From NCBI GenBank assembly GCA_973895155.1, contig OZ316891.1:32251208-32315207 (forward strand): DNA of 64,000 nucleotides, written 5' to 3'. Of this stretch, positions 36,922-63,905 are shown piece by piece; positions within the stretch are counted from its first letter, which is position 1, and each line of letters starts with the position of its first letter. A program made the translations under genes and the position numbers. The notes below the pieces were generated by a model. That model was given only the letters and a program-made list of their open reading frames with translations. It made no database searches and was not told where the DNA came from. This DNA comes from Marsupella aquatica. Lineage: Eukaryota; Plantae; Marchantiophyta.

Positions 36922-36934
36922 GGGACAACGTTGC

Positions 36935-38362
36935 ATGAACCCAAGGTACTCCATCTTAGTGAAGGAGGAAATTGACCGTCTCCTCGCCGCAGATTTCATC
37001 TACTCGGTAATGGCTAGCGACTGGGTTTCGCCCAATGTCATGTTACCAAAGAAGGGAGGTACGGAAAGAAAACCTAAGATTTGGATCTATCAAGACTATC
37101 ATAAGTTGAACGACGCAACCCGGAAAGACCATTACCCGTTACCATTCACGAATATGGTTCTAGATATGGTAGCCCGAAACAAAATTTATACATTCCTTGA
37201 CGGGTATTCGGGTTATAATCAAATTTGGATCCGCCTCTTGGATCAGCTCAAAACAATGTTCACTACGGAATGGGGGACATTCGCATTTCGGAGAATGCCG
37301 TTCGGGCTGTGTAACGCCCCGGCCATGTTTCAGCGACTCATGATGAATATCTTCCACGATTTCCTACGGGAATTTCTGGAAATATTTATCGACAACTTTG
37401 CCTTCTTTGGAACCATCGCCATGCACCCCGAACATCTACGACGTACGCTACAACAATGCCGAGAGGTTAACCTCAAGCTTTATCCCGCCAAATATTTTTT
37501 TGGGGTAGAGGAGGGAGTGTTACTTGGGCATCGTGTGTCCAAACGGGGTATCGAGGTGGACCAAGAGAAGGTCGCGGCTTGGATGGCGGTGGTGTTTCCC
37601 GTAGATCAAAAAGCGGTACGATCCTTCTTGGGCTGTGTAGGGTACTATCGTCAGTTCATTAAAGATTTTGCTAAAATTGCATTGCCCTTAACTGAGATGA
37701 TGAAGAAGGACGCGGTAATCAAGGAGACACCCAGGAGACGGATTGCTTTCGAAGAACTCCGTAAACGACTCACCACCGCACCTATCATGGTCACCCCGGA
37801 CTGGAATAAGGAGTTCCATGTGTATGTCGATGTGTCAGGGTTCTGTATCGGGTCCGTACTCAGTCAGCTTGATGAAGATGGACGTGACCACCCCATCTAC
37901 TTTGCTAGCCGTCAACTATTCACAGCCAAAAAAAATTATTCTCCCATTGATCGAGAAGCTCTAGGAATAATCTACTCATGTAAGAAGTTCCGACACTATC
38001 TGCTTGGCTACAAGGTCATATTCCACACGGATCATGATAGCCTGAAGTATATGGTCAACAAAGTGAACGTGACGGGACAGATAGCCCGGTGGGTGCTACT
38101 TCTCCAGGAATTTAACTACAAAGTTTGGGTTTGGCCAGGAAAGGCACATCTCAACGCCAACTTCTTTTCAAGGCTGGACGGCATACCAGTCAATCAACCA
38201 ATTAATGATACTTTTCCGGATGAGGAGTTATTCCACATAGGGGCGGGAACGCCTACGTGGTACGGTTCAATAATCACCTTCCTCTTAACAGGCCGCATCC
38301 CCGACGACATCAATCAGGAGGCCGCCACTGTGTTTTTATGGAAGGCCAGGCCATACTTATGA
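36935..38362 (+). pseudogene. pol: Reverse transcriptase + RNase H
   Basis: WVSP..PKK, DY.KLNDATRKDHYPLP, FLDGYSGYNQI, MPFGLCNAPA.FQR. YxDD is degenerate (FIDN). RNase H motifs VYVDVS..G.VLSQ, REALGIIY, TDHDSLKY. Confidence 0.95.
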
Positions 38363-39565: not shown

Positions 39566-40442
39566 TGTGATGCCGCCGATACGACGGGTAATGAGTGATC
39601 CGGTCTAACCGCGCTTAGCATGCGCGTTAGGGGTATCTTAGGCCGTTATTATTAGCATAACAACAGTATTTAGGTAGCCATTATGAGTAGGAAATCATTA
39701 GTCAATAAGGGGAATTCATGTTCGGGCTGGCGGTGGGTCTCCATTCGCACGCCCGGGTTGTGAGCGTGTAATGGGCCCCCTTTCCCCCCTCAGGTCCGTA
39801 TAACAAACCCCGAGAGGCGGCCACTGACACGAGTTGACCCGGACCGGCGAAGGGGCCGGTACACTGCGAGCATGAAAGGCTTGGCCTATAAGCGACAAGG
39901 AGGCGTCGGGCGATCGACGAGCTCTCAGGGTATAAAAGGTGGCCGATCCTTTGCAGTGCACCAATTCTTCAGTTCACGCGCTAGCTTTGACCCCGTCTCT
40001 CTCTCGCTTTTCCTTAGTCACCTGTTATCTCCTCTGAATGTCGCACACAATCCTTTCCAGTTTGGCCATACGATTTTGGACTCAGTTCCTGTCTATCAGA
40101 GGGCACTTGGCTGACTCATTGAAACACGCCAACTTGCGCCGATACGAGATTGAACGCGAATACAAGAGAGCCATCCGCCTAGCAGGACAACACCACTATC
40201 TCCTTAACTTTGATTATCCATCCCAAAGCGAGCTTTACCGACCCAAAGAAGTATCAGGGTACTTCTTTGACAAAGGAAAATACATCGGCTTCTAGGAGGC
40301 ATTGCTTTGGCTCCCGGATGAGGTCTTCAATATCCCGGGCACGATCAACTTGCAGCGGCACCACTTCGGCCACATCCCCGCTCGGGTCCGGGTTATCATC
40401 AACAGCGAGTTCAGCACTACCCGGTCGACAGGGCCGTCTGCA
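39566..40442 (+). mobile_element. Truncated 3' LTR of family B including start of LTR ORF (ATG 40038)
   Basis: TGTGATGCCGCCG matches the start of the solo LTR at 47156 (minus strand). MSHTILSS ORF start is conserved. Confidence 0.9.
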
Positions 40443-46100: not shown

Positions 46101-47156
46101 GCTGGCTGGGTGATAGGTGGTGGGGTTTGGCTAGGCTGCGGCTGAGGCTGAGGCTGAGGCTGAGGCTGAAGCTGAGGTTGCATGGGCACGGGTACGGGTA
46201 CGGGCCCGGCTGAGTTGGTCATGTTGGTTGATGGCCGAGTTCCCATGAAGCTCTGCAGGTGCTGGTAGAAGTTCTCCGAAGCGAGTGCGGACGCCCTTGT
46301 CGAACGGTTGGTACTGGACTCGCCGTTAATGACAGCCCGAACCTGGGCAGGGATGTGGTCGAAGTGATGTCGCTGCAGGTCGATTGTACCCGGGATATTG
46401 AAGACCTCGTCCGGAAGCCGAAGCAATGCTTCCCAGAACCCGATATATTTGTCTCCGTTGAAGAAGTACCTAGATACCTCAGCTGGTCGGTAAAGCTCGC
46501 TCTGAGATGGGTAGTCAAAGTTAAGGACGTAGTGGTGTCGTCCTGCTAGGCGGATGGCTCTCTCGTATTCGCGTTCGATCTCGTATCGGCGCGGGTTGGC
46601 GTGTTTCAATGAATCGGCCAAGTGCCTTCCGGTAGATAGGAACTGCGTCCAGAATCGAATGGCCGAGCTGGAGAGGATCGTGTGCGACATTCAGAGGAGA
46701 TAGTAGTGGCGACCTAGAGAGAACGAGAGAGCTGGGGTCGAAGCTGGCGCGCGGACTGATGGACTGGTGCACTACAAAGGGTTGGCTCTCCTTTTATACT
46801 TTGAGGGCTTGTCGATCCCCGACGTCTCCTCGACGCCCATAGGTTGAACCGCTCACGCTTGTGGTGTACCGGCCACTCCGCCGGTCTGAGTCAGCGTGCG
46901 TCAGTGGCCGCTTCCTTAAGTTCGTTATACGGACCCGAGGGAGGGGCCCCTCCACGCTCGTAACCCGGGTGTGCGAATAGCGACCCGCCGCCAGCCCGAA
47001 CCTGAAGTCCCCCTTATTGCCTAATGATGTCCTACCCCTAATGATTACCTAAATACTGTCGTTATGCTAATAATAGCGGCCTAAGACCTACCTAACGCGC
47101 GTGCCGAGCGCAGTTAGACTGAATCACTCATTAACCGCCGTACCGGCGGCGTCACA
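43145..47156 (-). mobile_element. Solo LTR family B (4012 bp)
   Basis: TG..CA termini. TSD GTTCT at 43140-43144 and 47157-47161. Start matches the post-PPT sequence (39566) and end matches the pre-PBS sequence (17959). Confidence 0.95.
44042..46690 (-). CDS. Intact 882-aa LTR-encoded protein (N-terminal helical region, PQ tract, PMD/plant-transposon-like core, Pro-rich linker, coiled coil, basic C-terminus)
   Basis: Uninterrupted ATG-to-TAG ORF in LTR sense orientation. Homologues in four other LTR copies. Confidence 0.88.
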   Translation of the reverse strand: MSHTILSSSAIRFWTQFLSTGRHLADSLKHANPRRYEIEREYERAIRLAGRHHYVLNFDYPSQSELYRPAEVSRYFFNGDKYIGFWEALLRLPDEVFNIPGTIDLQRHHFDHIPAQVRAVINGESSTNRSTRASALASENFYQHLQSFMGTRPSTNMTNSAGPVPVPVPMQPQLQPQPQPQPQPQPSQTPPPITQPAQVCSVINAVDLSDDDEATPPLTRRPRGTSARGADTISSPPPALTPGAALADNMVTVAAPGPLPTAVALPRPDQEDGEVSPSPSQSRGKKRKESATASGLPLATVAVAKVTMHRMGENVHSNILHPKHAVYLKTQGFEHLASLPWNTCRYYGEDMTEFVKNYDDVRQQTRLRGRNMSLTEERLKMIFGLPEGDHRVESRAPGGKGAKYQSSSFPSEGSVDNGFVMRTCLMPEIAERLEFQRYALHMMEPRGEISAAQVIQVKNYRPRKWASYFAKKFHEEMERRRKTLYIGGKAYFASHIEIILEWYARFDRRTLPRINVTKLVPARWVFPALERRPQPEARSPVDTPASPTPPPQIAVIVTEEAPEGSVVATVDATQLAGLSTEVGTAEVLPEPGSPKDPPVAIPENRTSLQEDTPAPSNVMSPGLDVTAPAPARVDVCPCPNPDRHNLDHPELFVQGTFLNGLLGDFSHQIARDTGEFMARKVACFFNQELVAAVKAGRAQSEALQRIERYRVESVYLKNEVAAQEAELLQLRPKVAAADELLAKAYALTALAEQAKAGNEAEITRLRNQIDSLKKQAVTWQKDLEEAEERAQRDATEIATLQVEMARLQTEAEKQDQLAGKLMSDAQQLEEACQEAAEETDAARRENESLLDQVQLLKADNDRLRRQRDGRSHLGSSGKRARH

Positions 47157-48843
47157 GTTCTCCTTCATCTAGAGGATGTAAAGTTGCCCAAACATGATCT
47201 TGTTTATCATGGGATTGACGTATCTTCAATCCCTCTAGTCCATACTCTAATCCAGCTAGTCGATTCAGTCCCACTGCACTGTCTAGTAGAGATCCAAAGT
47301 CATAATTTCTCTCATGGCCACTCATGCCACCTACCTTGCTGAAAAATATCTCACAACAATCTGATCCCAACAAGTGAAATGGAACTTGCAAATATGGGAA
47401 CTTGTCCCGAAAGGCACATGTCACACCATTCTGAGTAGTGTAGTAGTATATCGTGCTATTAGAGTATGTATGTTTGGTATGAGTGCTATTGGAGCCGATA
47501 AGGTTCCGTCAGGTTTGTGTGAGAGGGTACTTCTCACTTGTGAAGCATTGAAAGGTCATCTTTCAATGTTGAGCCTTGGAGAGAGAGGAGCTTGAGTGTG
47601 GCTATGGTGGCTGTGAGCTCCGCTTGTGTAACATGGATTCCTTGAGTAGTGCAAGGTGCGTTGGCTTGACATACGTGTGTGATCGGATCGATGCGGGATT
47701 GATGGGGTATTGTTGACCGGGATCGTTGTGCCGATTGTATTGAGATTACATTGAAAGATCAGATGCAAACTCTGTTGTGCGGACTGTGCAAACAGAAGTT
47801 CATTTTGGATTGATCGAGCTGGTGATGGTTTGTGGAAATCGTTTCAATCTGTTGCGTGGATCCGTGGTATCTCGGATCTCATTGAGTAGATCGTTAGTCC
47901 TTCAATCTGCTGCAGTTTGTGTTGGCGAATGCTATTTTGAGGAAAGAGATCACAGATCATTGAAGATTGCAGATCGCTCATTGTGTCATCGGATCTGGGC
48001 ACATAACGCTGCTGTTGTAGCCGAGTTTGAATGTTGGTTTTCGTGGAGGAAAGCATTCCGCGAATGTTGGCAGATCGTCGGACAGTGGAAGTCATCTGCG
48101 AGGCTTCAGATCTGATTTTCGACTACTGTGATAAGGCACAAGTGAAGCGGCGATCTGCCGATGCTCCGCGCGGTTATGTGGAAGGGCCAATCCGCGCGAA
48201 GTTGCTGCAACTCGCGGATCCGAGCGACAGGGCGCCGACTGCTCGCAGCTGATCCGCAACTCCCGACTGTCCGTCGTTCTGTGAAGGGAAACTGAGAGAC
48301 GGAAATCTGAATGTTGCCGAAACTCGATTCGGTGTAGCGAAGCGTTGCGGGCGTGAAGGGCTCACTCTTTGGCTCATCTCGGCGTTTGAGGCTTCGAGGC
48401 AACTCGTGGCTATTCTGGGCCGTGAGCGCGAGGGGAGGCACGAGGTCGAGCGCGAGGAGGTCACCCATCCCGGGGCTATTCCCAGCCGCAAGCGCTTAAC
48501 TGGCAAGTTCTCATCCCACCTTGTGTACACACAAGCTTTGACAACTTGTTGTTTAGATTCAAGCGCCAGGGGGCTTTATACACTTCCCGGTTTGTTTAGA
48601 GGCCTATTCTAGGCCAAATCAAAGGTTGTTTCAGGGTTTTTGATACTTCTGAGTCCATCTAGACTCACATATTGAACCAATTTTGCCTTGGTTCTCATCT
48701 ACAACATTGGAGTGCCATTGTGAAGCCTATTATGAAGGCTCTTCCTTGAACCTTATGCACATTGTCATATTGATTTGCATTTGCTTTTGTGTGGAGAGTT
48801 GAATGATCAGCCTATTCATTAAAAGTGTATTATTATTTGATTT

Positions 48844-49146
48844 ATGTACATTTGGGCAATGAAAAGTGTACTTTTGGGCTTAGAAAAGTGTACATTTGGG
48901 GATAAAAAAGTGTACAATTGGTCTAAAGAGTGTATATTTGGGCAATGAAAAGTGTACATTTGAGCATCAAAATATGTACATTTGGCTTAAAAAGTGTACA
49001 TTTTAGTACATTTGGCCTAGAAAGTGTACATTTGAGTGAAAAAGGATACATTTGGCTTAAAAAGTGTACATTTCAGTGCATTTAGTCTAGAAAGTGTAGC
49101 TTTGAGTGCAACAAAGAGTACATTTGGCCTAAAAAGTGTACATTTT
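48844..49146 (+). repeat. Left subterminal repeats AAAAGTGTACATTT
   Basis: About a dozen spaced copies. The motif overlaps the inner TIR sequence. Confidence 0.85.
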
Positions 49147-49366
49147 CCTGAAAACTTTTATTGTAATCATTTAAAATAAAGAAATTAATAAAAAATATTT
49201 TTAATTATGCAGAAAAAATAAACATTCATATTCATAATAATCAAAAGTTTAGAAAATGAGTAGATAGTCTACTAAGTAACTAAACACTCAATGGCATGGT
49301 CTCACAATATATATAATTCTTACATAAAAACTAGTAACTATCTAATTATACCTTAGCTAGTGACAA

Positions 49367-52300
49367 CTAAGTGTACTTGTCCATCCTTTGGAGATAACTT
49401 TGGACAGTTTGTAGAACATTTCGAGGAATCTTCAAACCTCTGCCAACCATGTTTTCTTCCTTCATTCCAGATTTAAAACCATACATTGCAGAATTTGCAT
49501 ACTGCCAATGTTGAGTGTTCTCACCAAATCCTGGATCTCGTTCCCATGTCTTGGTGGACATGAAACAATTGAGATACCTAGCACTCTCACTCACATCAAG
49601 TTTAGAGTGTTTAGGCCTCCACCATTCCACGGGGAACATTGGAGCATATTGTTGAGTCAAAGGAGGGTCTCTTGAAGATGCAATTGGGACTTCATGCTTA
49701 GGGTCCACCTGACCCAAAGCTCTCACCAACCAGAAATGACCTCCACCATTTTTCTTCTCCCAATCATCCTCGGGTCGAAGAAACACAAAGTTTCCTTCAC
49801 AAATATCCTGGAGGGGAATCCACCGTCCTTGTTCTCTCTCAGCTCGAGATCCAACAAATGGTGCTGCTTGATCTTCCATCTCTTCCAAGACTTCATTTTG
49901 AAGAGCTGTCATCTCTGCAGTCTCCTCATCTTCACTTAGAGGACCACTCTGTTTGCATGCCGATTGGTTGACCTTGTAACCAGTGCCGTGGTTAGTCTTA
50001 GGCCAAAATCCATTTTTCAATGGAAATTGATTATTTCCCTCCCCTTCCATTGCAAGCCCATTTGACAACAGCTCCACAATTCTTTCCCAATATTTAACAA
50101 GAGGAAATCTTTCCTTGTATGCTATTGAAGTCTCATCAATGCAACTCCTTCTCAAAAAATCAAGGTACTTGTTAAGGAATGGGATTATCTCTTCTGATTT
50201 TTTGTGTATCTCTCCTATGGATTTAGCTAAGGGTTGTCCACTGGGTAAAAGAAGAGAATTTGTTATTGGATCAGTTTCCCAAATGCACCTTCCGCCAACG
50301 GGAGCCCAAGCTTGCTTAACATGGGACTTATACTGAAATATTGGTACATTATCTCTCATAGAGAAAAGAAATGATACCGGTTTTGAGTGACCTTGAATAT
50401 CTTTGACCTTAAAACTTTGAAGATATTCTTTGTAAGATGCAACTTCTTGTATCAATCTTGGAACTGGATGAATGCTCTCACATTCCCAAACCTCTGCCAT
50501 TAGTGCAAGAAGGGTTGCAACTTCCTTGTGCTGAACTTGATATGATACCTTGGAAAATAGTGCATCAACATCTTCGTGCGTATGACCAACCATTAGAAAG
50601 GACATTTGAACAGTTTCAAATATTCCTCTACTCACAAGCTCCGAGCAAAATGCCATGACCGTTTGGTTTTTGTTGTCCTTTGCTGAATTATCCATTTGCA
50701 ATGTTAGGTGCCTTGGCAAGGGCATGAACAACGGACTGCCCTTCTCACCACCCACGTCCCCTCCATCATCCTCATCCTGTCGGGTTGTGATGGTCTCAGT
50801 CTGACTGTCGGTAGCTCCATCTTCAGAACCAATATACCTATTTACTTGAATATTCTTTGGTTCCAAATATCCCGACAAAAATGCATCAAAGTCAAGTAGG
50901 GCTTGAAAGAAAGGTTTGTGAGGTTCCCAATGCAAGCCATCAAGCATGTCACCTGTCTTGTCTCCATTGTACTCTTCAAGATCTCGAAGACATTTAGCCA
51001 AGGATGTCATTGTGAAATCTGCATCTCCTGGCCAAAGGCCAGTGACACTAAAGTGTGCATATACTCCTGGATCTCTCCCGTGGGTCAACATCCCCGTGAG
51101 AGCGATAGGTAGCGACATTCCATGACCCAAAAGTGATTTAGGAGTACTAACCATTTTTGGAATCCATGTCTTTGCTTGATCCATCTTGTCGTGAATAATG
51201 CAAAGATATTCTCCTGGATGTTGCTTGGCCATCACTCGATGAGCGTAGTAAACATATCTACGTGACATTTGCTCACAAAGATGTTGAGCTCTTCTTTCTT
51301 CAATTTCAGCACGTTCTTTTTTCCTTCTCTCTCGCATCAAACTGTCTTTGTATTCACAACAAAGCGTACACTTGGCAAATGCGCCATCCTTGTGAAAACT
51401 GAAGTTTGCAAATGATGTGCTCCATATCTTGTAGAGAGTGTTATCCGTAACAGGAGGAAGCCCTTCTTCCTTCATCTTTGTTCTCACATCTTCCAAAATC
51501 TCTAACTTTTTGTAACACGCTAGAAGTTGATACTCAATGCTGTCTGTCCCATGAGCCCCTCCATAAGGCATATGAGGCATTGGCTCTGCATTTTGAGTCA
51601 AAAATGCCTCTAGAAGAGCTCGCGCATGCAAGGTATTTGACCTTGTTTTCTTCAAGCCTGTGTTCCCATGGAACCCAATTTTGCAACCCTCCATGTATCT
51701 TCTCTTGTAATCATAATACTTGGTGTGACTAAAACCATGGATGGTTGCAAATGCATCTTTACAGATGACCATACCTTTGAGAACATGGTGTCCCTTATCA
51801 CGAACATCATCCTCTCTGTAGTGGAAGAGGTTGAAAATGTGTGATGTTTTGGACTCGCTAGACATCCCATGAAATTCCATCCTAACATCTTCTATATCTT
51901 CCCTTGGCATAATGAGACAACATTTATGCTTGCAGCAATTTACTCTTTTGATCTCATCGATTGCGGCTTCTATTGTTTTTGAAACTGCCTTGGTTTGCAA
52001 GAGCCTCCTTTTCTTCTCAACAGGATCAACTTGATTCCTCTTGTTGAAGTTATATGGCCTTTGACGACATCCGGATACGGATCCAACCACATGATCCGGA
52101 TTCAGATCATCCCTATCCATTGACTCCATATTCTCTGTACCTTCTACCAGAATGTCTGACAAAAATTTTCCAGTTGCTACTAGTTTTGTGTGATCAATTC
52201 GCCACCGAACCAAACTAATTACTCCCTTGTTAATGCTTGGAAAGTATTGCGATTCCATGACATCTTTCACAGCAACCCCTACATAGTCTTCTCCCAAGAT

Positions 52301-53158
52301 TTCATCATCAACAGCCGCCGTTGCTTGAGGCATAGTGATAGTCCCAGTGGCAACCTTACTCGATCGTTCTGAACCAATGTATAATTCGACCAACTCTGAC
52401 ATCCAGTTGGACCATTGGTAATAATCAGAATGAGTTTTGGTCGATTTTGTTGATGGAGAATGTGAGACAAAACTCTCCTCAATTAAAACGTCGCCATCAC
52501 CTTGCTTCTTAGAGGAAGACTTTCTACCTTCATCAACATTCCAACCTTTTTTATGAACATCGGCCAAGTCCCAGAGAACCCATGAGTCTTTTGCCTCTTC
52601 AATTGTTTCAGCCCCATTGTGTATGTAAGGTAAAGCCTTACTACCATGAATAACATCAGTGATTTTCACACTGATCCGAGACTCACCAAGAAATATGTTG
52701 TGACATCGGTCCTTTGGATTTACCTTGAAAATAACTCCAAGGGCTACACAACACCCATCAATGAGCATTTCAACCTCGTCCCCTTGCCTTAGAGTGTTTG
52801 ATGCATCCTCCATAACAATTGTAGGAGATTTATCCAAGTTATTATCTGGTCGAGTTGAACAACTACCAGTACTGATGCGTTTTGGGGAATCTAGAGTTAT
52901 AGAGAGATAGGCGCACGAGATCTCCCAAATAACACATGAGTCAATGGCATCGAAAAGATTTTCTACCCTTGGTAGTGGAAATGGTAGTTTTTGAGTTGGC
53001 TCAAAAACCTTCTCCACGAGCACACCAATTCGATTATCTCCCAACAATATGTTGTGCACCCTATCCTGGGGGTTAATTTTCTGAAGTGTCCCATAACCGA
53101 CATCATATCCATCAATTGTCAAGGTCACATCATCACCTCTTGAAAACCTTCCAGTCAT
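49367..53158 (-). CDS. Sola-like DDD transposase, intact (ATG 53158; ORF open from 53182)
   Basis: FAKCTLC CxxC..H motif. Candidate catalytic Asp motifs IIHDKMDQ, LQMDNSAKDNKN and FLMVGHTHEDVDALFS. Three N-terminal ~75-aa repeats and a C-terminal beta-rich domain. Confidence 0.88.
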   Translation of the reverse strand: MTGRFSRGDDVTLTIDGYDVGYGTLQKINPQDRVHNILLGDNRIGVLVEKVFEPTQKLPFPLPRVENLFDAIDSCVIWEISCAYLSITLDSPKRISTGSCSTRPDNNLDKSPTIVMEDASNTLRQGDEVEMLIDGCCVALGVIFKVNPKDRCHNIFLGESRISVKITDVIHGSKALPYIHNGAETIEEAKDSWVLWDLADVHKKGWNVDEGRKSSSKKQGDGDVLIEESFVSHSPSTKSTKTHSDYYQWSNWMSELVELYIGSERSSKVATGTITMPQATAAVDDEILGEDYVGVAVKDVMESQYFPSINKGVISLVRWRIDHTKLVATGKFLSDILVEGTENMESMDRDDLNPDHVVGSVSGCRQRPYNFNKRNQVDPVEKKRRLLQTKAVSKTIEAAIDEIKRVNCCKHKCCLIMPREDIEDVRMEFHGMSSESKTSHIFNLFHYREDDVRDKGHHVLKGMVICKDAFATIHGFSHTKYYDYKRRYMEGCKIGFHGNTGLKKTRSNTLHARALLEAFLTQNAEPMPHMPYGGAHGTDSIEYQLLACYKKLEILEDVRTKMKEEGLPPVTDNTLYKIWSTSFANFSFHKDGAFAKCTLCCEYKDSLMRERRKKERAEIEERRAQHLCEQMSRRYVYYAHRVMAKQHPGEYLCIIHDKMDQAKTWIPKMVSTPKSLLGHGMSLPIALTGMLTHGRDPGVYAHFSVTGLWPGDADFTMTSLAKCLRDLEEYNGDKTGDMLDGLHWEPHKPFFQALLDFDAFLSGYLEPKNIQVNRYIGSEDGATDSQTETITTRQDEDDGGDVGGEKGSPLFMPLPRHLTLQMDNSAKDNKNQTVMAFCSELVSRGIFETVQMSFLMVGHTHEDVDALFSKVSYQVQHKEVATLLALMAEVWECESIHPVPRLIQEVASYKEYLQSFKVKDIQGHSKPVSFLFSMRDNVPIFQYKSHVKQAWAPVGGRCIWETDPITNSLLLPSGQPLAKSIGEIHKKSEEIIPFLNKYLDFLRRSCIDETSIAYKERFPLVKYWERIVELLSNGLAMEGEGNNQFPLKNGFWPKTNHGTGYKVNQSACKQSGPLSEDEETAEMTALQNEVLEEMEDQAAPFVGSRAEREQGRWIPLQDICEGNFVFLRPEDDWEKKNGGGHFWLVRALGQVDPKHEVPIASSRDPPLTQQYAPMFPVEWWRPKHSKLDVSESARYLNCFMSTKTWERDPGFGENTQHWQYANSAMYGFKSGMKEENMVGRGLKIPRNVLQTVQSYLQRMDKYT

Positions 53159-53295
53159 TCTCGGATTTAGTAACCTGCACAATTTTCAGAAAAACCATCA
53201 CAAATCCGAATGACAAGAATTTGAAGAGACTCACAATTATCCATACGGTCATTTGATTGCCATTCCGCGAATCCAAACGTTGGCTCAACTATCAC

Positions 53296-54432
53296 ACTTG
53301 GATTGGGGTGGTCCAAATCAAAACCACAAAGATTGTATTCCGAAGGTCAAATTTAAGCATCTCGCTTGAATTGGGATCGTCCGAATCCAAACCAACCTCT
53401 ATCCAACACACCCTCTTGGATTTGGATGGTCCGAATCCAAACCCAGATGGGATCCCAAAGGTCCCAATTCAACAAACGCGCTTGGATTGGGATGGTCCGA
53501 ATCCAAACCCAGATTTTATTTCAAAGGTCCCAATTTAAGCACCGGGCTTGGATTCGGATGGTCTGAATCCAACACCAGATTGTATTTCAAAGGTCCGAAT
53601 TCAACCCACCATCTTGGATCCGAATCCAAACACAGATTCTATCCCAAAGGTTACAATTCAACAAACCGGCTTGGATTGGGATGGTCCGAATCCAAACCCA
53701 GATAGTACTTCAAAGGTCCCAATTTAAGCATTGGGCTTGGATTCGGATGGTCCGAATCCAAAACCAGATTGTATTCCAAAGGTCCGAATCCAACCCACCA
53801 TCTTGGATTCGGATGGTTCGAATCCAAACACAGATTCTATCCCGAAAGGTCCCAATTCAACAAACCGGCTTGGATTGGGATGGTCCGAATCCAAACCCAG
53901 ATTGTATTTCAAAGGTCCCAATTTAAGCATCGGGCTTGGATTTGGATGGTCCGAATCCAAAACCAGATTGTATTTCAAAGGTCCGAATCCAACCCACCAT
54001 CTTGGATTCGGATGGTCCGAATCCAAACACAGATTCTATCCCGAAGGTCCCAATTCAACAAACCCTCTTGGATTGGGATGGTGCGCGAATCCAAACCCAG
54101 ATTGTATTTCAAAGGTCCCAATTTAAGTATCGGGCTTGGATTCGGATGGTCCGAATCCAAAACCAGGTTGTATTTCAAACGCCCAAATTCAATCATCTCG
54201 CTTGGATTGGGATGGTCCAAATCCAAACCGAGATTGGATCCCAAAGGTCACAATTTAAGCATTGCACGCTTGGATTCGGATGGTCCGAATCCAACACACC
54301 CAAGATTGGATTCTGATCAGATGGTCCCAATCCTACAAAATGGATTGGATTCGGATCATCCGAATCCAAACAACAATCTAGGATTAGGACCATTATAATC
54401 CACACATCAAGTCTGGATTCAGATGGTCTAAC
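53296..54432. repeat. Array 1 of palindrome TTGGATTCGGA-TGG-TCCGAATCCAA (~66-bp monomers, ~198-bp trimers)
   Basis: About 17-19 copies. Higher-order period visible at 53671, 53870 and 54068. Lies in a putative minus-strand intron (GT at 54637, AG at 53175). Confidence 0.93.
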
Positions 54433-54902
54433 TCCACAATGAAGATTATGTTGAGATGGATATATTGAGATTGAGATCTCTTCCTAATCAAATTTAGACA
54501 TTCCGGGTTTTTTGGAACATTGGGTAATTCGTGAAATAATAATTGGGAAGTCACTAGAATGCAGAACAAAGTGAAAGGTAAACCCTAAACTTCCCTAAGA
54601 ACTCAAAATAAGCAAAGCGACTAAGACCATAACTCACCTCAGCAGTCTTGTTTTTCCAGTATGTCTCCAAGGTTGGCTCTGCTACCTCTAAATTGATGAA
54701 TAAGTTCATATCAAACTGACTAAGAAAGCTATCAAAGCCACTTCAAGTCTAAACTCCATCAGAGAGAAGAGCTGAGGAGGAGTTGCGCAGACCTGGATGC
54801 CCAAGTGAAGATATGAAACTAAAACAACAATGATGTCCGTAGAGTACCTCTTATACTCGTGGGTTGGTATGTTCGGCCCTGAATGTGCAATCCGATAAGG
54901 TT

Positions 54903-55012
54903 GAGGCAACACCGAGTATCGCGGTTAGAACAATCATCCAATCCTTTTTCAATCCATTGTGTCAGACAAAGGATTGGATGATTGTTCTAACCGCGATACT
55001 CGGTGTTGCCTC
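54903..55012. other. Perfect 45-bp inverted repeat with 20-bp loop between divergent genes
   Basis: 54903-54947 is the exact reverse complement of 54968-55012. Confidence 0.95.
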
Positions 55013-55393
55013 CCAAACTGATAGGACCAGATCCCTTCTTGGTCTCTATCCGTACAGAGATCATCCGTACAGAGATGATCCGTGTAGCGATCATCCGTAC
55101 GCAAACAAGCCTTTCAGGAGGGGGTAAAGGGATGACAAGGTCTTCCATAGACCTCATTGTTGTTTCGCTCTCTGTCGCTCCTCACTGTCGCTCCTCACTC
55201 TCGCTCCTCACTCTCGCTCCTCACTCTCGCTCTAGCTCCTCATTCTCACTCCTTGCTCTCGCTCTTGGCTTGCTGCCGCCGCTATCCCTTGCCCTTGCCC
55301 TAATTGCCTTCTTGCCCTAATCTGTTGCAACGCCCTAGATCTTGCCCATCTTGACGTGTCCTCAATATATCCTGCCACGTGTCACTCCTAAAA

Positions 55394-58300
55394 ATGGAAG
55401 TTGCCAAGAAAACTGTCATTGTCCTGCTCGCCGAAGAATCTGATGACTTGGATCTCTCCTCTGTCGGTGATCTTGTGGCCCTAGCGCTTGGGGATTCCCA
55501 AGAATTTCAATCACAAGTCCAAAGTAAGTTTCCAGAGGTTTATTCATGCATCTTAAGTTGTTGGATTCGGATGGTCCGAATCCAAGAGGGTTGTTTGGAT
55601 TCGGACCATCCGAATCCAAGTGGGTTGTTTGGATTTGGATGGTCCGAATCCAAGTGGCTTGATTGGATTCGGATGGTCCGAATCCAAGTGGCTTGATTGG
55701 ATTCGGATGGTCCGAATCCAAGAGGGTTGTTTGGATTCGGACCATCCGAATCCAATGGGTTGTTTGGATTTGGATGGTCTGAATCCAAGTGGCTTGATTG
55801 GATTCGGATGGTCCGAATCCAAGTGGCTTGATTGGATTTGGATGGTCCGAATCCAAGAGGGTTGTTTGGATTCGGACCATCCGAATCCAAGTGGGTTGTT
55901 TGGATTCGGATGGTCCGAATCCAAGTGGCTTGATTGGATTCGGATGGTCTGAATCTAAGAGGGTTGTTTGGATTCGGACCATCCGAATCCAAGTGGGTTG
56001 TTTGGATTCGGACCATCCGAATCCAAGTGGGCTTCTTGTATTGGATTTGGATGGTCCGAATCCAAGAGCCCTCAATCTCACTTTGACAGTGATTTCTTAA
56101 AACAAATTTCATGGATTTAAAGTCTAATATGAATTTTCACTCTCCAATGCAGAGAGTGATCTGGTGAATACAACTCTCGCCATTTCAGAGGCAGACTGCG
56201 ACGATGGGTTCATTTTGGAGGACCGCGATCCAGGATTTCAGTGGGGACTTGAGTTCTCGCGAGTAAACTTCCGCCTAAATTCATTTAACATTCAGGATCC
56301 AGTGTTATGTGTCAAGATCAGGACAGGCAACAACCAAACATTGGTCATCGGACCCGTGGTCTCTGTGGGAATGATAGGAAGAGGAATGAATTCTATCATT
56401 GTAGAGGTGTCGGACACGATGAGGTGGGCAAAGTTGCAGCTCCCGTCAAAGGCTTTCTCGGCCGAGTTCAATGTGGAATGGTATGCAAGTGGGGAATTAA
56501 GTGTGTTGTCGATGGGATTCTTTCCAAAATCCTACACAAAGGAGAAGATTATTGGAGGACTGAAGGGAATGCTTCCTTTGGACATTTTTTATGGGTTTCT
56601 TTATTTGAAACTCAACATTGTAAACAACCCATCAAAGTTCTCTCTTCCATCCACATGGACTCTTAACAATTTGCTTCAGAAAGCAGGTCTGGTGTCACCA
56701 GACTCAAATGTTTGGATCACCAAGGCACTAGCCTTTGCACACACGCTTGACCTGGAAAAAGCAAATCTATGGGTAGAGTCTTTGGTGAAGTTGAGGAAAA
56801 GTACACAACCACAGAACATAATTGAGTCTACGCCAGCCAAAGGAACTCCAGCAACTACGACGGAGATAGCACAAACTACTGCAGCAACAACCATGGATAG
56901 AGCGGCAGGGAAGCGGAAGTAGAGGGAGAAGAAGCTTCCGGTTGAGAAACCTACTTCAGTTGAGAAGAAGATCACGGCTCCAGCCGAGAAGAAGAAGCTT
57001 CCAGCCGAGAAGAAGTCGAGGGAGAAGAAGAAACAAAAAACCAACACCGGAGTTGTGAATTCAACTCCTGTAGATTTTTCATTACATGCTGAAGATGAGG
57101 GTGATAGGCCACATGCTCCAGAGGAGAAAGACGTCTTAGAAGGGAATGAAGTTCTTCAACAAATGGAGCAGTACTATACTTTTGGGATAAACGAAATTTT
57201 TCTGATCCCAGTTGAAAGTATTTTTGCCGCACCAGCGAGACTATGCTATCGGATGATGAATTTTGATCATGTGCAAGACATTGTTGATTCCATGATCAAA
57301 ACACCTGGGCATGAGCCACATGTCGCTGATTTGATTCCTTTTAATGTCGAGCGAAGAAAGGTACTCCACTTTGAGAATACGGAGTCGGACCGGAAGGATT
57401 TTTTGGCCAGAGTGAAAAAGGGCGAGGTCCAATTTCTAGCAGTTAGTGGTCAGCACTCTGCGAGAACTGCGAGATGGATTCATGATTGGGCAACGAAGGA
57501 TGCCAAGCTCACCCAGTTGGCCAAGAAGTTAGAATTCAGGAAATCCAGAATATTGTCTAATCGCACACCGTCTTCAATTCTTGTTGAGCACTCCATGAGA
57601 TCGAACGCCATCAATAGCACGATGGTGTTTCAGTCTTGCTTTAAAGATACAGTTGTCCATGCGAGGCGGCAGTTTGTTGAATGTGGAAATCCAGACAAAC
57701 CAAAACATGGCGACAACAAAACAAATGCTCAAGACAACCAAAAATTTCAGGTAAGAAATGTGATTACTTTGTATGCATTTCTCTACCATAGAGAGTAATT
57801 CTATTTTGGATTCGGATGGTCTCAGTCCGACACAATTTGTCAAAGAGTATTGGAACTTTTGGAATGTTTAGTACAAGTTTTGTTTTTGATTGAGACCATC
57901 AGAATCCAAAACTATTATCGCACATTAGAATCCTTTTTTTCCAACCCTTGAGTTGGGGATAACTGACTAGCTTTCCTTTTGGATTGTAGGATTGGTTGGC
58001 TCTGGCAAGAATGACTATGGGCAGGAAGGACTTGCGAAATGTATATTGGCTACTTTTTGCGGACAATGATCTTTTTGAGTTGTGGCGGTTAGTCTGTGAG
58101 ATGTGGTTGCATGGGAAACTTCCTAATGGAGCTGGGATGGAAGGAAATAACAAGTCCAAAAAAGCAATTACCGTTGCCATGTTTCGTCCCTTTGATGGTG
58201 AGTTGATCTCACAGAAAGACATCACAAAAATCCTGACACAAGTGAAGTCAAGAAAGGCATTGCTGAAGAAAGATGCCACTAATAAATCTGACATACCCTC

Positions 58301-61300
58301 AATAGAGGAGCTTGCGAAGGATGTGAAAAAAGTGAGGAAGCTCAAGTCTCTCATTGAAGAGTACTACTTCGGCAAGGATCCAAGGAATTTCCCTTCGGAT
58401 ACCGACTGGAAGAAAGTTGTAGAGGTTCTGCCATTGTTGAGTGTTGATGCAGAATTCAGTAGATGCAGAAGAGCGGCTGGTGAAGTTTTTTTGTCAAATC
58501 TGTTGAAGCCAAATCATACTAGGGAGAGTGCAATCTTGCCAATAGCTCTGGTGATGCGCCTTGATGACATTTATTGCCAGAAGTTTGGCGGAGGGACACA
58601 TTCTCGGAGCCAACCGTGGGTCACGTTCTTTAGTGACAATCTAATGAAAACAGTTGATCCACCAGCAATAGAAGAATCATCTCCAACGTGCTCACTTGCC
58701 ATTGTTGACTTCAGTCAAGATCACCAGAAGCTGTGGACGGAAGTAGAAGTTTTGGTCTTTCTGCAATACATTGTGGAGCTACCACGAAATCTTACAATCG
58801 TTGTAGCCATAACTGTTCATCCGGGGCCTCTTGCAATGAATGTCCTAAGCTCACTTCGAAAATTGGGACAAGAGAAATCTCTCACGATTCACATTGAGTA
58901 TGGGAGTTATTCTCGAGAGGATCAACCACACCCGCTTGATTCGTGTTGGGGAGGCGGAATTGAAGAAGTTATATTTGCAGGAATTTCTCGAGATGAAAAT
59001 GTCAATTGGAATGATGTTTTCAAACCCAATCACCCAAAGCCAAAATTCTTTTTTGGTTCAAAAGATACTGATTTTGAGGTCACCAAGATTGACACTGGGA
59101 AGGCAAAGGTTGACACAGACGACGTGTCAAAACCCGAAGATCTAAAAATGATGCTGACCCCAGAAGAGGCGACCAAGGTTTTGCACATGGCCCCTTGATT
59201 GAGATAGTTGGTGCTCGTGGTGGTTGGGTGAATCCACATGCCAAACCCACGCGGATGATACAGAGGATTATTGAATCCTTGTCAGAAGCTGGAGACTTGA
59301 TTCTTGATTTTTTCTCGGGTGGTCAAGTGATGAAGACATCATTCTTGGTGCAACGCGAATGCTTTGTTTATTGTGACTCTCAAGATGAGAGACACTTTGT
59401 GGAAGCGTATGCTTCATTCCTTTGCGAGAGGGTCCCCTCAATCAAGGAAAATTGGGATCCTCGTGGTGGGAGTTCTAGGCATTGGAAACCCACTATTGCG
59501 GATGTTTCTGCCAAACATGAATCAGCTGATAATTCCGAAGAAGTGAGCGCTAAGTCAGTCAAAGATGATGGGGAATCAGAGGTGGCGTATGCAAAGAATT
59601 TGGATGACCGTGTAGGTCAAAGTGAAAGCATAGAACCCTACGATGTTGATGATAACATTGGTCTTGCACCACGCCCTTCATCAGGTGCAGATGACGTCCC
59701 TTTGGAACCCTATGAAGTTGAGGTTGATGACAACTTGGACAAGGATGGTCTCAATCCAAATGTGGTGCAACGAGAAACGGACGGAATTGGTGATCCAATT
59801 GACATTGATACATTTGAAAATCATTCGTCAACCAATTTGGTCGTGGACGGTGGAGACAGACAGGTCAATTCGAATGAAGCTGACACCCAAAATTTGATTC
59901 CCGGGACGGCTATCGAAGTACGTGAGATTCCCATGACCCCAAAAGCCCGTGCATCAGCGACTATTGACAACCAGGCAGGTGCTTCAATTTGTCCTGACAC
60001 ACTCTTTTCAGCTTCTGATGACAAATTGGTTTTTGTTCGTTCACACTCGGGAAGTCCAGTTGTCCTTCCTTTCTCAAAGAAAAAAGGGAATAGAGTTGGA
60101 TCAAGCGGATGGAGGTCACTTGAACGTGATGCACGATGTTATGTGTGGAAAAGTGGGCCAAATAGAGGCCAAGAAGTTTCATTGGATGCTGCTCCATCGA
60201 TTCTTAACAGGAAGGAGTATAAGAGAGGAGAATTGGGATTGATAACTCCTGTTTGGACGTCACCTTATTGGGTAGAACAAAGTACTTCAGATGTCAACTT
60301 TGAAATCCAAGAGGAGCTGGGTGTTGACATTATTGATGAATACGGATCTCTTTTTTCAGACTGAGATCAAACCGTCTGACTTTCCATTTTTTCATACCAA
60401 TCTAAAATACTTCTCGGTCTCACAGAATGCGGTCAGCAATTAGAGCCTCGATATCCACCTACGCTCTTTGGGGCTTCTAAAAATGGTATGTAGGTTTTCT
60501 TTGTTGTTAGTCATTGTCTTGTATTTTTGGACTGAGATTGTCTCAGTCCAAAGTTCAAATTTGGTTTTCTTTCTAAGAGTTGTATTTGTTGCACTTGCAG
60601 AATCGAGACCTTGTCCCATCAAGCGGAAGTTGCTGATTTTGGATCTTAACAAAATACTTTGGGATTCACTTGAATTCCAAAGCAAGGGCAAATCCAGAAA
60701 CATTGTGACCCCAAATGGAGTGCATTGGGATAGATCAAATGGAACTAGTCGCATGTATACAGAGAGGCCAGGGTTCCATGAGTTTCTAAAGTTGGTTTTT
60801 GACCGGTTTGACGTTGCAATTTGGACATGTGCTGGGATGCCGCGGACAGTGAAAATGTTGAACATGATGTTCACTGTTGAGGAGCGGTTGAAACTGAAGT
60901 TTGTATTCACACAGGTGGAAGCCTTTGACACAGGCATTCAAAGGCGTGACATTACAAATGGAAAGGCAAATGTGCTATTGAAGGATTTTCGGGTGGTATG
61001 GAGTGCATTTGGAAATCTATATGATGAAACCAACACACTCCTTGTGGATGACTCCCCCTTGAAGGCATTTGCCAACCTAGACATGACCGGACTATTTCCA
61101 GTGCCCTACACGCATGCCAATCGTGGAGACAATTTTCTTCTAACAATTCTTTGGCCATGTCTTGAGAAACTGTCACATGCAAGTGACATTCGTTGTTATC
61201 TTCTCCTAAACTCTCCAAAGTGGTCTCTATTGCACATTAAGAGAGACAAGGCAAAAAATGAGATTACTTATGATCAACTTAGTAAGAGATGTGCAGCAAA

Positions 61301-61637
61301 AATTTGGAAGTCACAGTATAGGCATAGTGTGCTGGACCTCAATAGCAATGAGATTCCTTGGGCTGTGAAGCACCGTATATGTAGCTTACGTCCTGAGGTG
61401 GAACTTGACGATGCACTTGTCACCTCACTTACTAGATCATTTGTAGGACGGGAATATTCAGGTTTGTATAGAGAAAATCCCAGACACTTTTTGCGGGAGA
61501 TTATAGCAGTTAGGAACAACACCACCAAATTTCATCTCCCTGAAGATAAAGGGAGTTGCAACCGTGACATTAGGGTAGATAGTAAAGGAGACAAGGGCAC
61601 GTGCTCAAATAAATATTGTAAGGAGCACTTTGTTTAG
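55394..61637 (+). pseudogene. Spliced cargo gene: ParB/Srx-like + beta-class N6A/N4C DNA methyltransferase-like + FCP1/NIF HAD phosphatase-like (~1750 aa reconstructed)
   Basis: Exons 55394-55523, 56153-57750, 57990-60485 and 60601-61637 are joined by GT-AG introns that keep frame. Lesions: TAG 56920, frameshift between 59114 and 59195, TGA 60362 and TGA 60377. Motifs: YRMMNFDHVQDIVDSM..FLAVSGQHS..SN (ParB-like); NPHAKPTRMIQRIIESLSEAGDLILDFFSGG (MTase motifs X/I); LLILDLNKIL, RPGFHEFL, VAIWT, NTLLVDDSPLK (NIF). Confidence 0.75.
55561..56065. repeat. Array 2 of the same 25-bp palindrome (34-bp period, ~15 copies)
   Basis: Copies at 55561, 55595, 55629, 55663, 55697... with recurring 9-bp spacers. 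Entirely inside intron 55524-56152. Confidence 0.95.
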
Positions 61638-61896
61638 AGATCTGACTCATGTTAAGCCCATTAGATTGTAAAAATGGGTGCCAGCCCTGGATATTCATCG
61701 TAAGTTTGGACACAATTGTATATAATTATTTCACACATTATCAATCAATGGTCCTTGCCTAGGCTTCTTTGTGCGTAAATGTTTTTACAAGTATGATCTC
61801 TATCCCATGGTTCTTTGTGAACTAATAAGTAATATAATACTATTATAATTAATATAATATAATATAATAATATAATACTAATAAGATTTGGCCTAT

Positions 61897-61976
61897 AAAG
61901 TGTACATTTAGGTATCAAAAAGTGTACATTTGGGCTTCTTAAAGTGTACATTTGGGGACATAAAAGTGTACATTTC
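61897..61976 (+). repeat. Right subterminal repeats AAAGTGTACATTT (4 copies)
   Basis: Same motif as the left end. Confidence 0.85.
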
Positions 61977-62267
61977 AGGACTGATTTGTGAACAAAAGAA
62001 AATACACTTTTAATGAATAGGCTGATAATGGTATCCATTCTTGTTTCTGGATCCTCTTCACACATGTTTCCTATTTATGCGCCATGTTAGTTTGGTGTGG
62101 GCATTTGATTCCATAAGAATGATCCGGGTTTGCAACCGGACATTCTAGTTGTGCTGCGTATTTCTCTCCCGGTGATGTTGGAGTGATGCCCAACACACCA
62201 TGGTGAGTGCTTGTGGTGCTGACAGGGATAGATTGCCCTTAGGGTTAGCACATAGATTAGGTTAGGG

Positions 62268-63905
62268 TTGGTCACCACGGATTCTTCTGGTGCTGCTGGA
62301 TTACCCAATGGACGACGGACCAGTTTCACTCGGAGTGGGGCACAGTTTCGGCCAACGGCATTGGTAGCAGTCAATAGTGCAGCTTCAGACAGTGATTCTG
62401 ATGAGGACTCAGTGACCAGTTCTCCTCGTCATCAGGTGGTTGCACCTTTGTTGTGGGATATGGACGAGATGTACGGGGCTACAAAGGGCCCACGACGATA
62501 CTCTGGTGCAGTTGGCACAATTGATCTGGATGACTTCATCCAGGAGTTTGATACGTGGTGCGATATGCAGACATTGCATAACGCCACGTTGTTTACCCCT
62601 TTCATGGCATGGAAGGGATTATTTCAGCATTTGGAGGGGCCACCCATGGATGACTACCATGAGTTTCGGAAGGCTCATTTGGTTGAGATTGAGGCATGGA
62701 GGCAGCATTGGTCACCTAATTATGTGTCCATCACCTATGGCACTAGTGCGGCTGCCCAACCCATTGCCACAGCTGTTGCCTCTTCTAGCAGCACTAGCCA
62801 GAGTGGCACACCATCCACCAGCAGCACTCCAGCAGCATCCACCGCTACTCCTGCCGGTGTGATTGTGACAGGAACTGGAGTTGCGCCAGCATTTAATCCT
62901 GTGGTGGAATTCTTTGAGGTACTGAAGCAGAACTATCAGGGTGTGAGAACTGATAAGTTGAAGGGTCTCCAGGAGTTCCACCGCAAGACTGGAGAGAGTC
63001 TACGTGAGGCATACACTCGTATGCACAGATTGATCACTGTCACCAAGGGAGTGATAGAGGCTCAAGCAGTCCAGTTTTGGTATGCAATTTTGGATAGAGA
63101 ATTGCGACGTAGAGTGAGAGATGTCACTCTGCTTAGGGATGCAGATCCCACATTAGCAGTTGTTTTCACCCTTTCTGAGCGCATTGAGCTCAATATGGTG
63201 AATGAGAAGGTGGTGACTTCTGGATTTACCAAGGAAGCACCAAAGGCTGCATCTACATCCACACCACAGCCTACTGCATGGAAGAGCCAGAGGGAGAAGC
63301 CTACTGCACGAGAGTCTACCAGCCAGAGACCTGTGCCCTCTTATGCTGGACAGCAGTCAGGATGTTGCACCTGTGGTGGGGATCATGCACGGAGATATTG
63401 TCCAGATCATAGAGGATCAGGGGGAGCATCAGCGCCTGATCAGCGACAGTGTGATCACTGTGGAGCTCCTGGACACACCAAGGATAGGTGTTTCTCACTC
63501 CATCCTGAGTTACGGAGAGGAGGATCCCGTACACATGATCAGGGAAGAGGAGGAGGAGGTAGAGGGGGTGGACGTGGTCGTGGCATGCCACATGCAGGGA
63601 GACAGGGAGGTAACGCTGCCCCTGCTGTAACCATAGATCCAAAGGATGCTAAGATTGCTCAATTGGAGCAACAACTAGTTGCCATGGCTAGTTCCCAAGT
63701 GAGACCTACTTCTGGTGATGGGGCATCTACATCCTATGGACCTTCCACATCCCATGGTCCTTCCACATCTTATGGAGCTGATGGAGATCTTGCCACCATG
63801 GGATTCATGTCTGGCACTGCACATATTGATGCATCAGCAACTTTAACACGTGGGGTAGCCAAAGCTCTTGAGCCCCGAGGAGCAGTAGTGGAGCTAGATC
63901 CATAG
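62268..63905 (+). CDS. gag: Gag-like protein of another LTR retrotransposon
   Basis: RYSG..DLDDFIQEFDTWC, RKTGESLREAYTRM, knuckles CTCGGDHARRYC and CDHCGAPGHTKDRC, RGG-rich tract. The frame continues past the TAG to the window end. Confidence 0.8.
   Translation: MVTTDSSGAAGLPNGRRTSFTRSGAQFRPTALVAVNSAASDSDSDEDSVTSSPRHQVVAPLLWDMDEMYGATKGPRRYSGAVGTIDLDDFIQEFDTWCDMQTLHNATLFTPFMAWKGLFQHLEGPPMDDYHEFRKAHLVEIEAWRQHWSPNYVSITYGTSAAAQPIATAVASSSSTSQSGTPSTSSTPAASTATPAGVIVTGTGVAPAFNPVVEFFEVLKQNYQGVRTDKLKGLQEFHRKTGESLREAYTRMHRLITVTKGVIEAQAVQFWYAILDRELRRRVRDVTLLRDADPTLAVVFTLSERIELNMVNEKVVTSGFTKEAPKAASTSTPQPTAWKSQREKPTARESTSQRPVPSYAGQQSGCCTCGGDHARRYCPDHRGSGGASAPDQRQCDHCGAPGHTKDRCFSLHPELRRGGSRTHDQGRGGGGRGGGRGRGMPHAGRQGGNAAPAVTIDPKDAKIAQLEQQLVAMASSQVRPTSGDGASTSYGPSTSHGPSTSYGADGDLATMGFMSGTAHIDASATLTRGVAKALEPRGAVVELDP

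Follow-up and report, generated by a model that had tools for sequence, protein, structure and literature searches.

A liverwort DNA transposon carries a beta-class methyltransferase-like protein whose family lacks the canonical catalytic motif

The stretch of DNA analyzed here (the window) is 64,000 nucleotides (nt) long and comes from the liverwort Marsupella aquatica (contig OZ316891.1). It contains a DNA transposon with terminal inverted repeats (TIRs), and this element carries a gene whose predicted product combines a likely ParB-like domain with a methyltransferase (MTase)-like domain. All positions below are those of the window. We found three long open frames in series on the + strand (56128-57798, with one TAG inside, 57990-59198 and 59114-60364). 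When three predicted exons are joined, they give a gene model with a single frame that begins at the ATG at 55394 and is interrupted by just two stops, the TAG at 56920 and the TGA at 59196. The parts of this model, and the domains and motifs within it, are as follows.

55394..55523, + strand: exon 1 of the ParB-like/MTase-like gene, from the ATG at 55394 to a GTAAGT donor at 55524 (predicted model)
56153..57750, + strand: exon 2, following a CAG acceptor that ends at 56152; in-frame TAG at 56920-56922; exon end backed by the Calypogeia fissa protein P0002
57193..57612, + strand: likely ParB/Srx-like domain with the motif F-x-A-[IV]-S-G-[QA]-H-S, from a weak model and structural matches
57751..57989, + strand: intron 2 (GT..AG), without which proteins P0002 and P0154 run on continuously
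57990..60364, + strand: exon 3, whose product comprises a helical region, the MTase-like domain, an acidic linker and a C-terminal domain that is conserved; interrupted at 59196-59198 by the TGA and, after 59198, by the loss of 1 nt
58615..59440, + strand: beta-class (N6-adenine/N4-cytosine) amino-MTase-like domain, from Pfam, the family profile and structural matches; equivalent to model residues 169-464 of the relative P0006
58707..58718, + strand: place of motif IV, D-F-S-Q in the window copy, D-F-S-R in other copies and D-[FL]-x-[RHK] in the family, from the family alignment and contigs
59231..59248, + strand: motif X, N-P-H-A-K-P, from the family alignment; Lys kept in 62/63 relatives
59306..59323, + strand: motif I, D-F-F-S-G-G, with 85-93% conservation at each residue among relatives

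The intron at 57751-57989 is confirmed by relatives that are continuous across 57750/57990. A search with 57990-59177 returned four long proteins, one of them from Calypogeia fissa, that are uninterrupted across both breaks of the window copy. Contigs from three runs have an extra T just after 59198. With this T in place, the translation reads M-A-P-[TGA]-F-E-I-V-G, to be compared with A-P-x-[YFW]-E-[MI]-[VI]-G in the family. A 26-nt mini-intron (GT at 59178, AG at 59203) was considered as the origin of the frame change and was rejected, given that the relatives are uninterrupted there and that other copies have one more T. As read from its letters, the window copy is a pseudogene, because it has two nonsense codons and a 1-nt deletion. 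Relatives from other records have long unbroken open reading frames (ORFs) of 700-1,009 amino acids. We also detected a deletion variant, at low depth and in three of four runs, in which 247 nt within 56938-57186 are lost and replaced by a single T.

An earlier note on this DNA, made without database searches, had proposed a beta-class amino-MTase-like domain with a degenerate catalytic motif and had raised the idea of a transposon-borne gene. The inverted ends, target duplication and empty sites described below bear out the latter. All the peptides that it quoted are present in the sequence; they lie, however, in two frames, SLAIVDFS in 57990-59198 and NPHAKP...LDFFSGG...RECFVYCD in 59114-60364. 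What it missed is that the window copy is a pseudogene, that the gene has further domains and that a conserved NIF-like gene lies beside it.

The PF01555-like match on which that domain assignment hung is present. The ORF at 59114-60361 matches Pfam PF01555 (N6_N4_Mtase) with an E-value (E) of 1.2e-5 and 25.8 bits (gathering score 26.7), across 29 residues only (profile positions 163-191) around motifs X and I. For this single sequence, we judge the match to be real but marginal. Note that the first four relatives each match the same C-terminal part of PF01555 independently (E 1e-5 to 8e-5). Scores among relatives span 16-29 bits, and 3 of the 38 longer relatives scanned reach the gathering score (P0008, 29.2; P0020, 27.6; P0057, 26.7). 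When the family profile was compared with PDB sequences, M.RsrI was found at E 2.1e-5, with VNPxxKP...LDFFSGG aligned to HPTQKP...LDFFAGSG.

The predicted fold agrees with this assignment. An AlphaFold model of the relative P0006, built from a 65-row alignment, has a predicted local distance difference test (pLDDT) score of 82.4 and a predicted template modeling (pTM) score of 0.74. Foldseek returned 85 matches to this model at E <= 0.001. The best was RsrI (E 2.8e-8), and the top matches were all beta-class amino-MTases (RsrI, CcrM, MboIIA, TTHA0409, M.BceJIV, PvuII, M1.HpyAVI and rotifer N4CMT). Alignment with VIA-align gave a Z score (Z) of 18.0 for CcrM (230 residues aligned, root mean square deviation 3.8) and of 17.2 to 15.3 for the other beta-class enzymes (M.BceJIV, MboIIA, TTHA0409, HpyAVI, RsrI, N4CMT and PvuII, the last being lowest). 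For the MT-A70 family, Z drops to 11.8. Because the P0006 model matches beta-class enzymes at Z 15.3-18.0 and MT-A70 at only 11.8, the fold and the permuted beta order are established. By sequence and modeled fold, the domain is thus a beta-order amino-MTase homologue in which the catalytic half precedes motifs X-I-II. The homology put forward in the earlier note therefore stands, on the PF01555 match, the M.RsrI profile match and the fold.

The side of the domain that would hold the methyl donor, S-adenosylmethionine (AdoMet), is the best preserved. The most conserved columns in the family are the Lys of VNPxxKP (62/63) and then D-F-F-S-G-G. M.RsrI (HPTQKP...VLDFFAGSG) and a phage enzyme, to which we return below, both align with the family segment VNPxxKP...(V/I)LDFFSGG. 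The final Gly of FxGxG is replaced by Q or shifted in the family (F-S-G-G-Q).

The catalytic side is different. We aligned 153 relatives to the family profile, of which 48 cover the place of motif IV, the position where the earlier note had seen (D/S)PPY replaced at SLAIVDFS and had asked for intact copies to be inspected. None of the 48 has (D/N/S)PP(Y/F/W), and none has P-P at all. What they share instead is a conserved acid (Asp in 43/48), followed by F (30 of 48) or L (15), then by S, T, A or G, and then by a basic residue in 40/48 (R 30, H 6, K 4). A Trp stands nine residues past the Asp in 39/48. In the P0006 model, residues 199-203 form the strand L-A-I-V-D, whose last residue is the conserved Asp, and F-T-R lies in the following loop, exactly the place where DPPY sits in amino-MTases. 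The proposed replacement thus holds at SLAIVDFS, and the motif is degenerate as described, except that the Q after DFS is specific to the window copy. Position 58717 is G in all contig depth of all four runs, which gives D-F-S-R in the other copies. As a control, we retrieved bacterial or viral ORFs by the same motif I pattern, and 16 of 17 kept [DNS]PP[YFWH]; the seventeenth lacks the tetrapeptide pattern and is still a full PF01555 match. Across this alignment, the degeneracy of motif IV is a property of the whole family and not the decay of one copy. The methyl-donor side is apparently kept, and the catalytic side swapped for a new conserved motif.

Does this replacement mean that the proteins do not methylate? 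In the rotifer enzyme N4CMT, mutation of SPPY to APPA ends the addition of N4-methylcytosine (4mC), as reported in the available text of PMC8885841. Because motif IV is replaced here, and because that mutation kills N4CMT, we infer that loss of the P-P-aromatic core abolishes amino-group methylation in the family. An alternative is that these are active MTases with an unorthodox motif IV, D-[FL]-x-[RHK], which would act on DNA, RNA or protein through an intact AdoMet pocket. Such an enzyme would be expected to look much as the family does, with motifs X and I as its most conserved parts, a substitute motif that is itself conserved (Asp in 43/48, the basic residue in 40/48) and the whole fold retained (Z up to 18). 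Against this, we know of no amino-MTase that works without P-P plus an aromatic residue, and DPP[YF] is kept in 16/17 prokaryotic or viral relatives that share motif I. The inactivation of N4CMT by the APPA change also argues against it (available text of PMC8885841), and we hold continued catalysis to be unlikely.

The family is large. A HMMER search of 1.84 billion representatives found 225 proteins with E up to 1e-3, of which 132 have E <= 1e-10 and 42 have E <= 1e-30. Other searches returned far fewer: five proteins for a profile search with the 65-row alignment, one 1.8-kb locus (L001) for a metagenome scan and a single match, at E 0.08, for a tblastn search of P0006 against phages. Among 31 relatives looked up, 18 carry an organism name, and all of these are from liverworts, namely Riccia sorocarpa (16 proteins) and Calypogeia fissa (2 proteins). 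The multidomain architecture and the motifs persist between members that are 25-30% identical, across at least two liverwort classes. Relatives with as little as 29% identity retain these motifs.

This distribution bears on a second alternative, in which the protein has no catalytic activity of its own and serves a host beta-class enzyme as a partner or decoy. By analogy with METTL14-METTL3 and MTA9-MTA1, its target at the transposon would be the liverwort enzyme DN4MT1, which it would bind as a partner, divert or block. Several solved beta-class enzymes act as dimers. The named relatives occur only in liverworts, which are described as the lineage using a bacterial-type 4mC enzyme in the available text of bioRxiv 10.1101/2021.02.12.428880. 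Nevertheless, no Marchantia polymorpha member is present among the named matches, and we regard a partner or decoy role as quite improbable.

The gene lies within a complete element, the parts of which are listed here.

48806..62026, no strand: whole DNA transposon, 13,221 bp, with perfect 26-bp inverted ends, a 4-bp duplication and empty sites
48802..48805 and 62027..62030, no strand: target-site duplication AATG, checked by script; four letters shared at the empty-site joint
48806..48831, + strand: left TIR, 26 bp, the exact reverse complement of 62001-62026 (26/26 bases)
62001..62026, - strand: right TIR, 26 bp, pairing with 48806-48831
48845..49146, no strand: left subterminal array of ~22-nt repeats with a unit like AAAGTGTACATTTGGGC (Tandem Repeats Finder)
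61897..61975, no strand: right subterminal array, shorter, with a unit like AAAGTGTACATTTGGGC (Tandem Repeats Finder)
49367..53185, - strand: transposase-like open frame of 1,272 codons, matching Pfam DUF7869 (PF25273) at E 1.6e-43
53368..54367, no strand: array A of the 21-bp palindrome GGATTCGGATGGTCCGAATCC, with a period of ~66 nt, upstream of the transposase-like ORF
55557..56066, no strand: array B of the 21-bp palindrome GGATTCGGATGGTCCGAATCC, within intron 1 of the MTase-like gene, with ~15 copies at a period of 34 nt

Empty sites were found in all four runs (X1-X4), as contigs that join 48801 to 62027 and skip 13,225 nt, with four letters that fit either side. The MTase-like gene thus lies inside a TIR DNA transposon that is demonstrably mobile. 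The element is also abundant: between 1,185 and 7,707 contigs per run match 48300-62500 at 90-100% identity, and the ParB-like/MTase-like gene itself is matched by 241 to 1,480 contigs per run at 85-100% identity (four runs, two organisms). Its 1,272-codon frame has a weak match to TNP1/EN/SPM (E 0.021) and no meaningful relative among PDB sequences. The Atlas neighbors of this frame are DUF7869 clusters, in one of which 11% of the members have DDE_Tnp_ISAZ013, a match that we treat as a lead only.

The palindrome GGATTCGGATGGTCCGAATCC has 45 strand-matches in the 64-kb window, where 0 are expected, and all of them lie in 53368-56063 except one at 57808 (57808-57828). These correspond to ~30 copies with two CpGs each, in two arrays of opposite orientation, one on either side of the stretch that separates the divergent transposase-like and MTase-like genes. 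At 54903-55012, in the middle of this presumed two-way promoter region, lies an inverted repeat of 48 nt (98% complementary, 14-nt loop). The CpG observed/expected ratio of the element is 0.55.

The surroundings are repetitive as well. The flanks at 48300-48805 and 62027-62500 are as deep in contigs as the element, and each of the four runs covers the empty site at high depth; the element sits inside another repeat. Inverted arms of 417 nt, 84% complementary (40026-40442 and 46286-46702), enclose an ORF of 882 codons that resembles a coiled coil (44042-46690, - strand) and may be another element. Retrotransposon gag and reverse transcriptase/ribonuclease H frames (156-914 and 36818-38362), together with many internal repeats of 80-98% identity in the part from 1 to 47 kb, make the window a nest of transposons.

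Upstream of the MTase-like domain, exon 2 encodes a domain that is likely ParB-like. Seven relatives have it together with the MTase-like domain in one protein, and in these F-x-A-[IV]-S-G-[QA]-H-S is invariant. We modeled this part (a weak model, pLDDT 52) and compared it with 48,161 chains. The ten best matches all have the ParB/Srx fold (Z 6.8-3.5, model residues 91-230), among them KorB (Z 6.8), PadC (6.7), the serine kinase SerK (6.2), pNOB8 ParB, sulfiredoxins, SbnI, Atu1540, SspE and BrxU. The segment S-G-[QA]-H-S falls at the place that corresponds to the GxxR-type nucleotide-binding box of ParB, and 5/7 rows have an Arg or Lys two to three residues further on. Fungal DUF3723 clusters were also suggested for this part by the Atlas (score 0.94, 165-171 shared features) and, having no Pfam support at E <= 5, are treated as no more than a lead.

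Two other parts of the protein can be described. After the acidic linker, a C-terminal domain of ~120 residues (59990-60361, ...DKLVF...SPVV...G..VS...EYGS) is common to most full-length relatives and belongs to no Pfam family. The part of exon 2 at 56155-56919 comprises ~255 codons upstream of the TAG, and the Lys-rich stretch at its end continues across that codon. This part has no Pfam family and no counterpart among the collected relatives; Pfam searches of the upstream exon gave chance-level matches only.

One further gene of the element lies immediately downstream.

60444..61637, + strand: NIF/FCP1-homology phosphatase-like open frame, matching Pfam PF03031 at E 2.4e-14 (53.8 bits versus a cut-off of 21.8)

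Motif I of haloacid dehalogenase (HAD) phosphatases is DxDx(T/V). The NIF-like ORF of the window has D-L-N-K-I at this position and the Riccia protein P0128 has D-V-E-G-L, neither of which fits the consensus. This gene, the second enzyme-like one in the element, may lack catalytic activity as well. Three gene models of Riccia sorocarpa (P0059, P0113 and P0128) have a NIF domain fused to the MTase-like domain or next to it. The pairing of the two is therefore older than the window's copy of the element, although errors of annotation could account for the fusions.

We consider it probable, by analogy, that the MTase-like protein is a non-catalytic accessory protein of the transposon that binds DNA and perhaps AdoMet. 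The MTase-like domain is likely a non-catalytic module because the window domain and all relatives examined lack (D/N/S)PP(Y/F/W). Its ancestor would have been a bacterial or phage fusion of a ParB N-terminal domain with a beta-class MTase, an architecture that is present in the ORF L002:4017-5294. The protein would play the part that the second protein, which binds DNA, has in other two-gene transposons. Its targets would be repeated sites within its own element, either the ~30 palindromes of 21 bp, with their CpGs, that surround the shared promoter or the 22-nt repeats of the subterminal arrays. Once bound, it could help transposition or expression, or keep silencing away.

Several points weigh against an accessory role of this kind. 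No link connects the protein with the palindromes or the subterminal repeats, and the transposase could bind them instead. The window copy cannot make the protein. The term non-catalytic follows from motif logic, and the replacement motif is itself conserved (Asp, basic residue and Trp), which could mean a different chemistry and not none. Pfam finds no match in 57100-57750 at E <= 5, and thus no ParB_N (PF02195), and hhalign of the ParB-like columns with one phage ParB covers 13 columns at a probability of 8%. The ParB-like assignment comes from a low-confidence model, and Z values under 8 are not decisive on their own. Because the fold matches derive from a poor model, Pfam shows no ParB_N and hhalign covers only 13 columns, we call this domain likely ParB-like and not proven. 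Note that a genuine phage ParB-MTase is also under the ParB_N cut-off (24.6 versus 26.3 bits). The Riccia NIF fusions may be gene-model artifacts. Finally, recent copies appear to be without clear purifying selection, because the 45 best-supported coding differences among close copies comprise 15 synonymous and 30 non-synonymous changes, near the neutral expectation of 22-29% synonymous.

The last point also bears on a third alternative, that the gene is a functionless passenger, captured by the transposon, now decaying and being lost. The two stop codons and the frameshift of the window copy, the neutral-looking differences among close copies and the CpG observed/expected ratio of the element would all be in line with it. 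However, near-neutral differences fit copies that decay after insertion and have no bearing on selection in the active lineage. Moreover, the architecture and motifs persist at 25-30% identity across at least two liverwort classes, uninterrupted ORFs exist in other records, and the loss of motif IV is accompanied by the gain of a new conserved motif, unlike random decay. We find it hard to credit that the gene is a mere passenger.

A more ambitious scenario can be built on the accessory-protein reading. The protein could be an anti-silencing device made from a dead bacterial MTase, an AdoMet-holding ParB-like/MTase-like dimer that sits on the ~30 palindromes at the two-way promoter and blocks or diverts host cytosine methyltransferases, including DN4MT1. 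DN4MT1 itself would then descend from this ParB-MTase lineage, acquired by horizontal transfer and carried around by such elements. We offer this as a long shot.

Bacterial-type amino-MTases are rare in eukaryotes. The two proven cases, rotifer N4CMT and liverwort DN4MT1, are both recent discoveries. The family described here is large, with at least 225 sequence clusters, and rides in a mobile element. Should intact copies turn out to bind AdoMet or the repeats of their own element, they would represent a new kind of transposon accessory protein, and a way would open to study how transposons of early land plants cope with DNA methylation. Even as a functionless passenger, the gene would be a marker for an unclassified family of DUF7869 transposons with a 4-bp target duplication. 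Among the papers that our literature search covered, none mentions DUF7869. In main texts, without their supplements, the search also found no description of this MTase-like family or of its combination with a ParB-like domain and a NIF-like neighbor in a liverwort TIR transposon.

Among known systems, the closest in layout is L002:4017-5294, an ORF on a viral contig from IMG/VR that matches PF01555 at E 2.9e-31 and ParB_N at E 2.6e-5. It has the same order, a ParB-like N-terminus followed by a permuted beta MTase, and similar motifs X and I (HPTQKP...GDTVLDFFGGSG in the phage protein, VNPxxKP...GDTVLDFFSGG in the family). Over these motifs, hhalign aligns the family with it at a probability of 93.5% (E 2.3e-7), and sequence similarity is limited to about 55 columns. 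The phage protein, at 426 amino acids, has DPPY, whereas the family has D-[FL]-x-[RHK]. Relative to the phage protein, the family adds a helical insert of ~200 amino acids, a long acidic linker, a C-terminal domain and introns, and its host is a eukaryotic transposon.

The solved beta-class enzymes CcrM (6pbd), M.BceJIV (8urk), M.MboIIA (1g60), M.RsrI (1eg2/1nw8), M1.HpyAVI (5hfj) and M.PvuII (1boo) have the same fold and permuted order as the family (Z 15.3-18.0, 193-230 residues). The family is only 8-17% identical to them, however, lacks the catalytic tetrapeptide and has the second Gly of FxGxG out of place. Bdelloid N4CMT (8s9m/8s9o) matches the family model at Z 15.7-15.8. Like MpDN4MT1a/b and the family, it is a bacterial-type PF01555 domain in a eukaryote, and DN4MT1 and the family have the liverwort lineage in common. 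In contrast to the family, which is transposon-borne and without SPPY, N4CMT and MpDN4MT1 are host genes with SPPY and proven 4mC activity, according to the available text of PMC8885841 and of bioRxiv 10.1101/2021.02.12.428880. MpDN4MT1 is described, in the available text of the former, as having no extra N- or C-terminal domains.

METTL3-METTL14 and MTA1c are weaker fold matches of the P0006 model (Z about 11.8). Pseudo-methyltransferases are known to serve as partners, as do METTL14 (which has EPPL), DNMT3L and MTA9. As in these proteins, the MTase fold is kept and the catalytic motif lost, with function exerted through binding, which for the family is a proposal. The difference is that they belong to the MT-A70 or C5-MTase clades and not to the beta class. 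Moreover, AdoMet binding is largely gone in them, whereas the family preserves its AdoMet-side motifs better than any other part.

Mobile elements that carry a gene from the DNA-modification toolbox offer a last comparison. The VANC anti-silencing proteins of Arabidopsis VANDAL elements bind short motifs repeated inside their own element, and these repeated motifs resemble the palindrome arrays seen here. TET/JBP dioxygenases ride in fungal DNA transposons (available text of PMC12730594), and Dam-like adenine MTases ride in retrotransposons (available text of bioRxiv 10.64898/2026.05.21.726589). Both are presumed to be active enzymes, of other families (dioxygenase and alpha/Dam, respectively), whereas the element described here has a beta-class domain without the catalytic motif, joined to a likely ParB-like domain and accompanied by a NIF-like neighbor. 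Transposon-borne DNA-modification genes, ParB-MTase fusions and pseudo-methyltransferases are thus each known separately. Their combination in this element, around a beta-class domain that lacks motif IV and retains the AdoMet motifs, did not turn up in our literature search.

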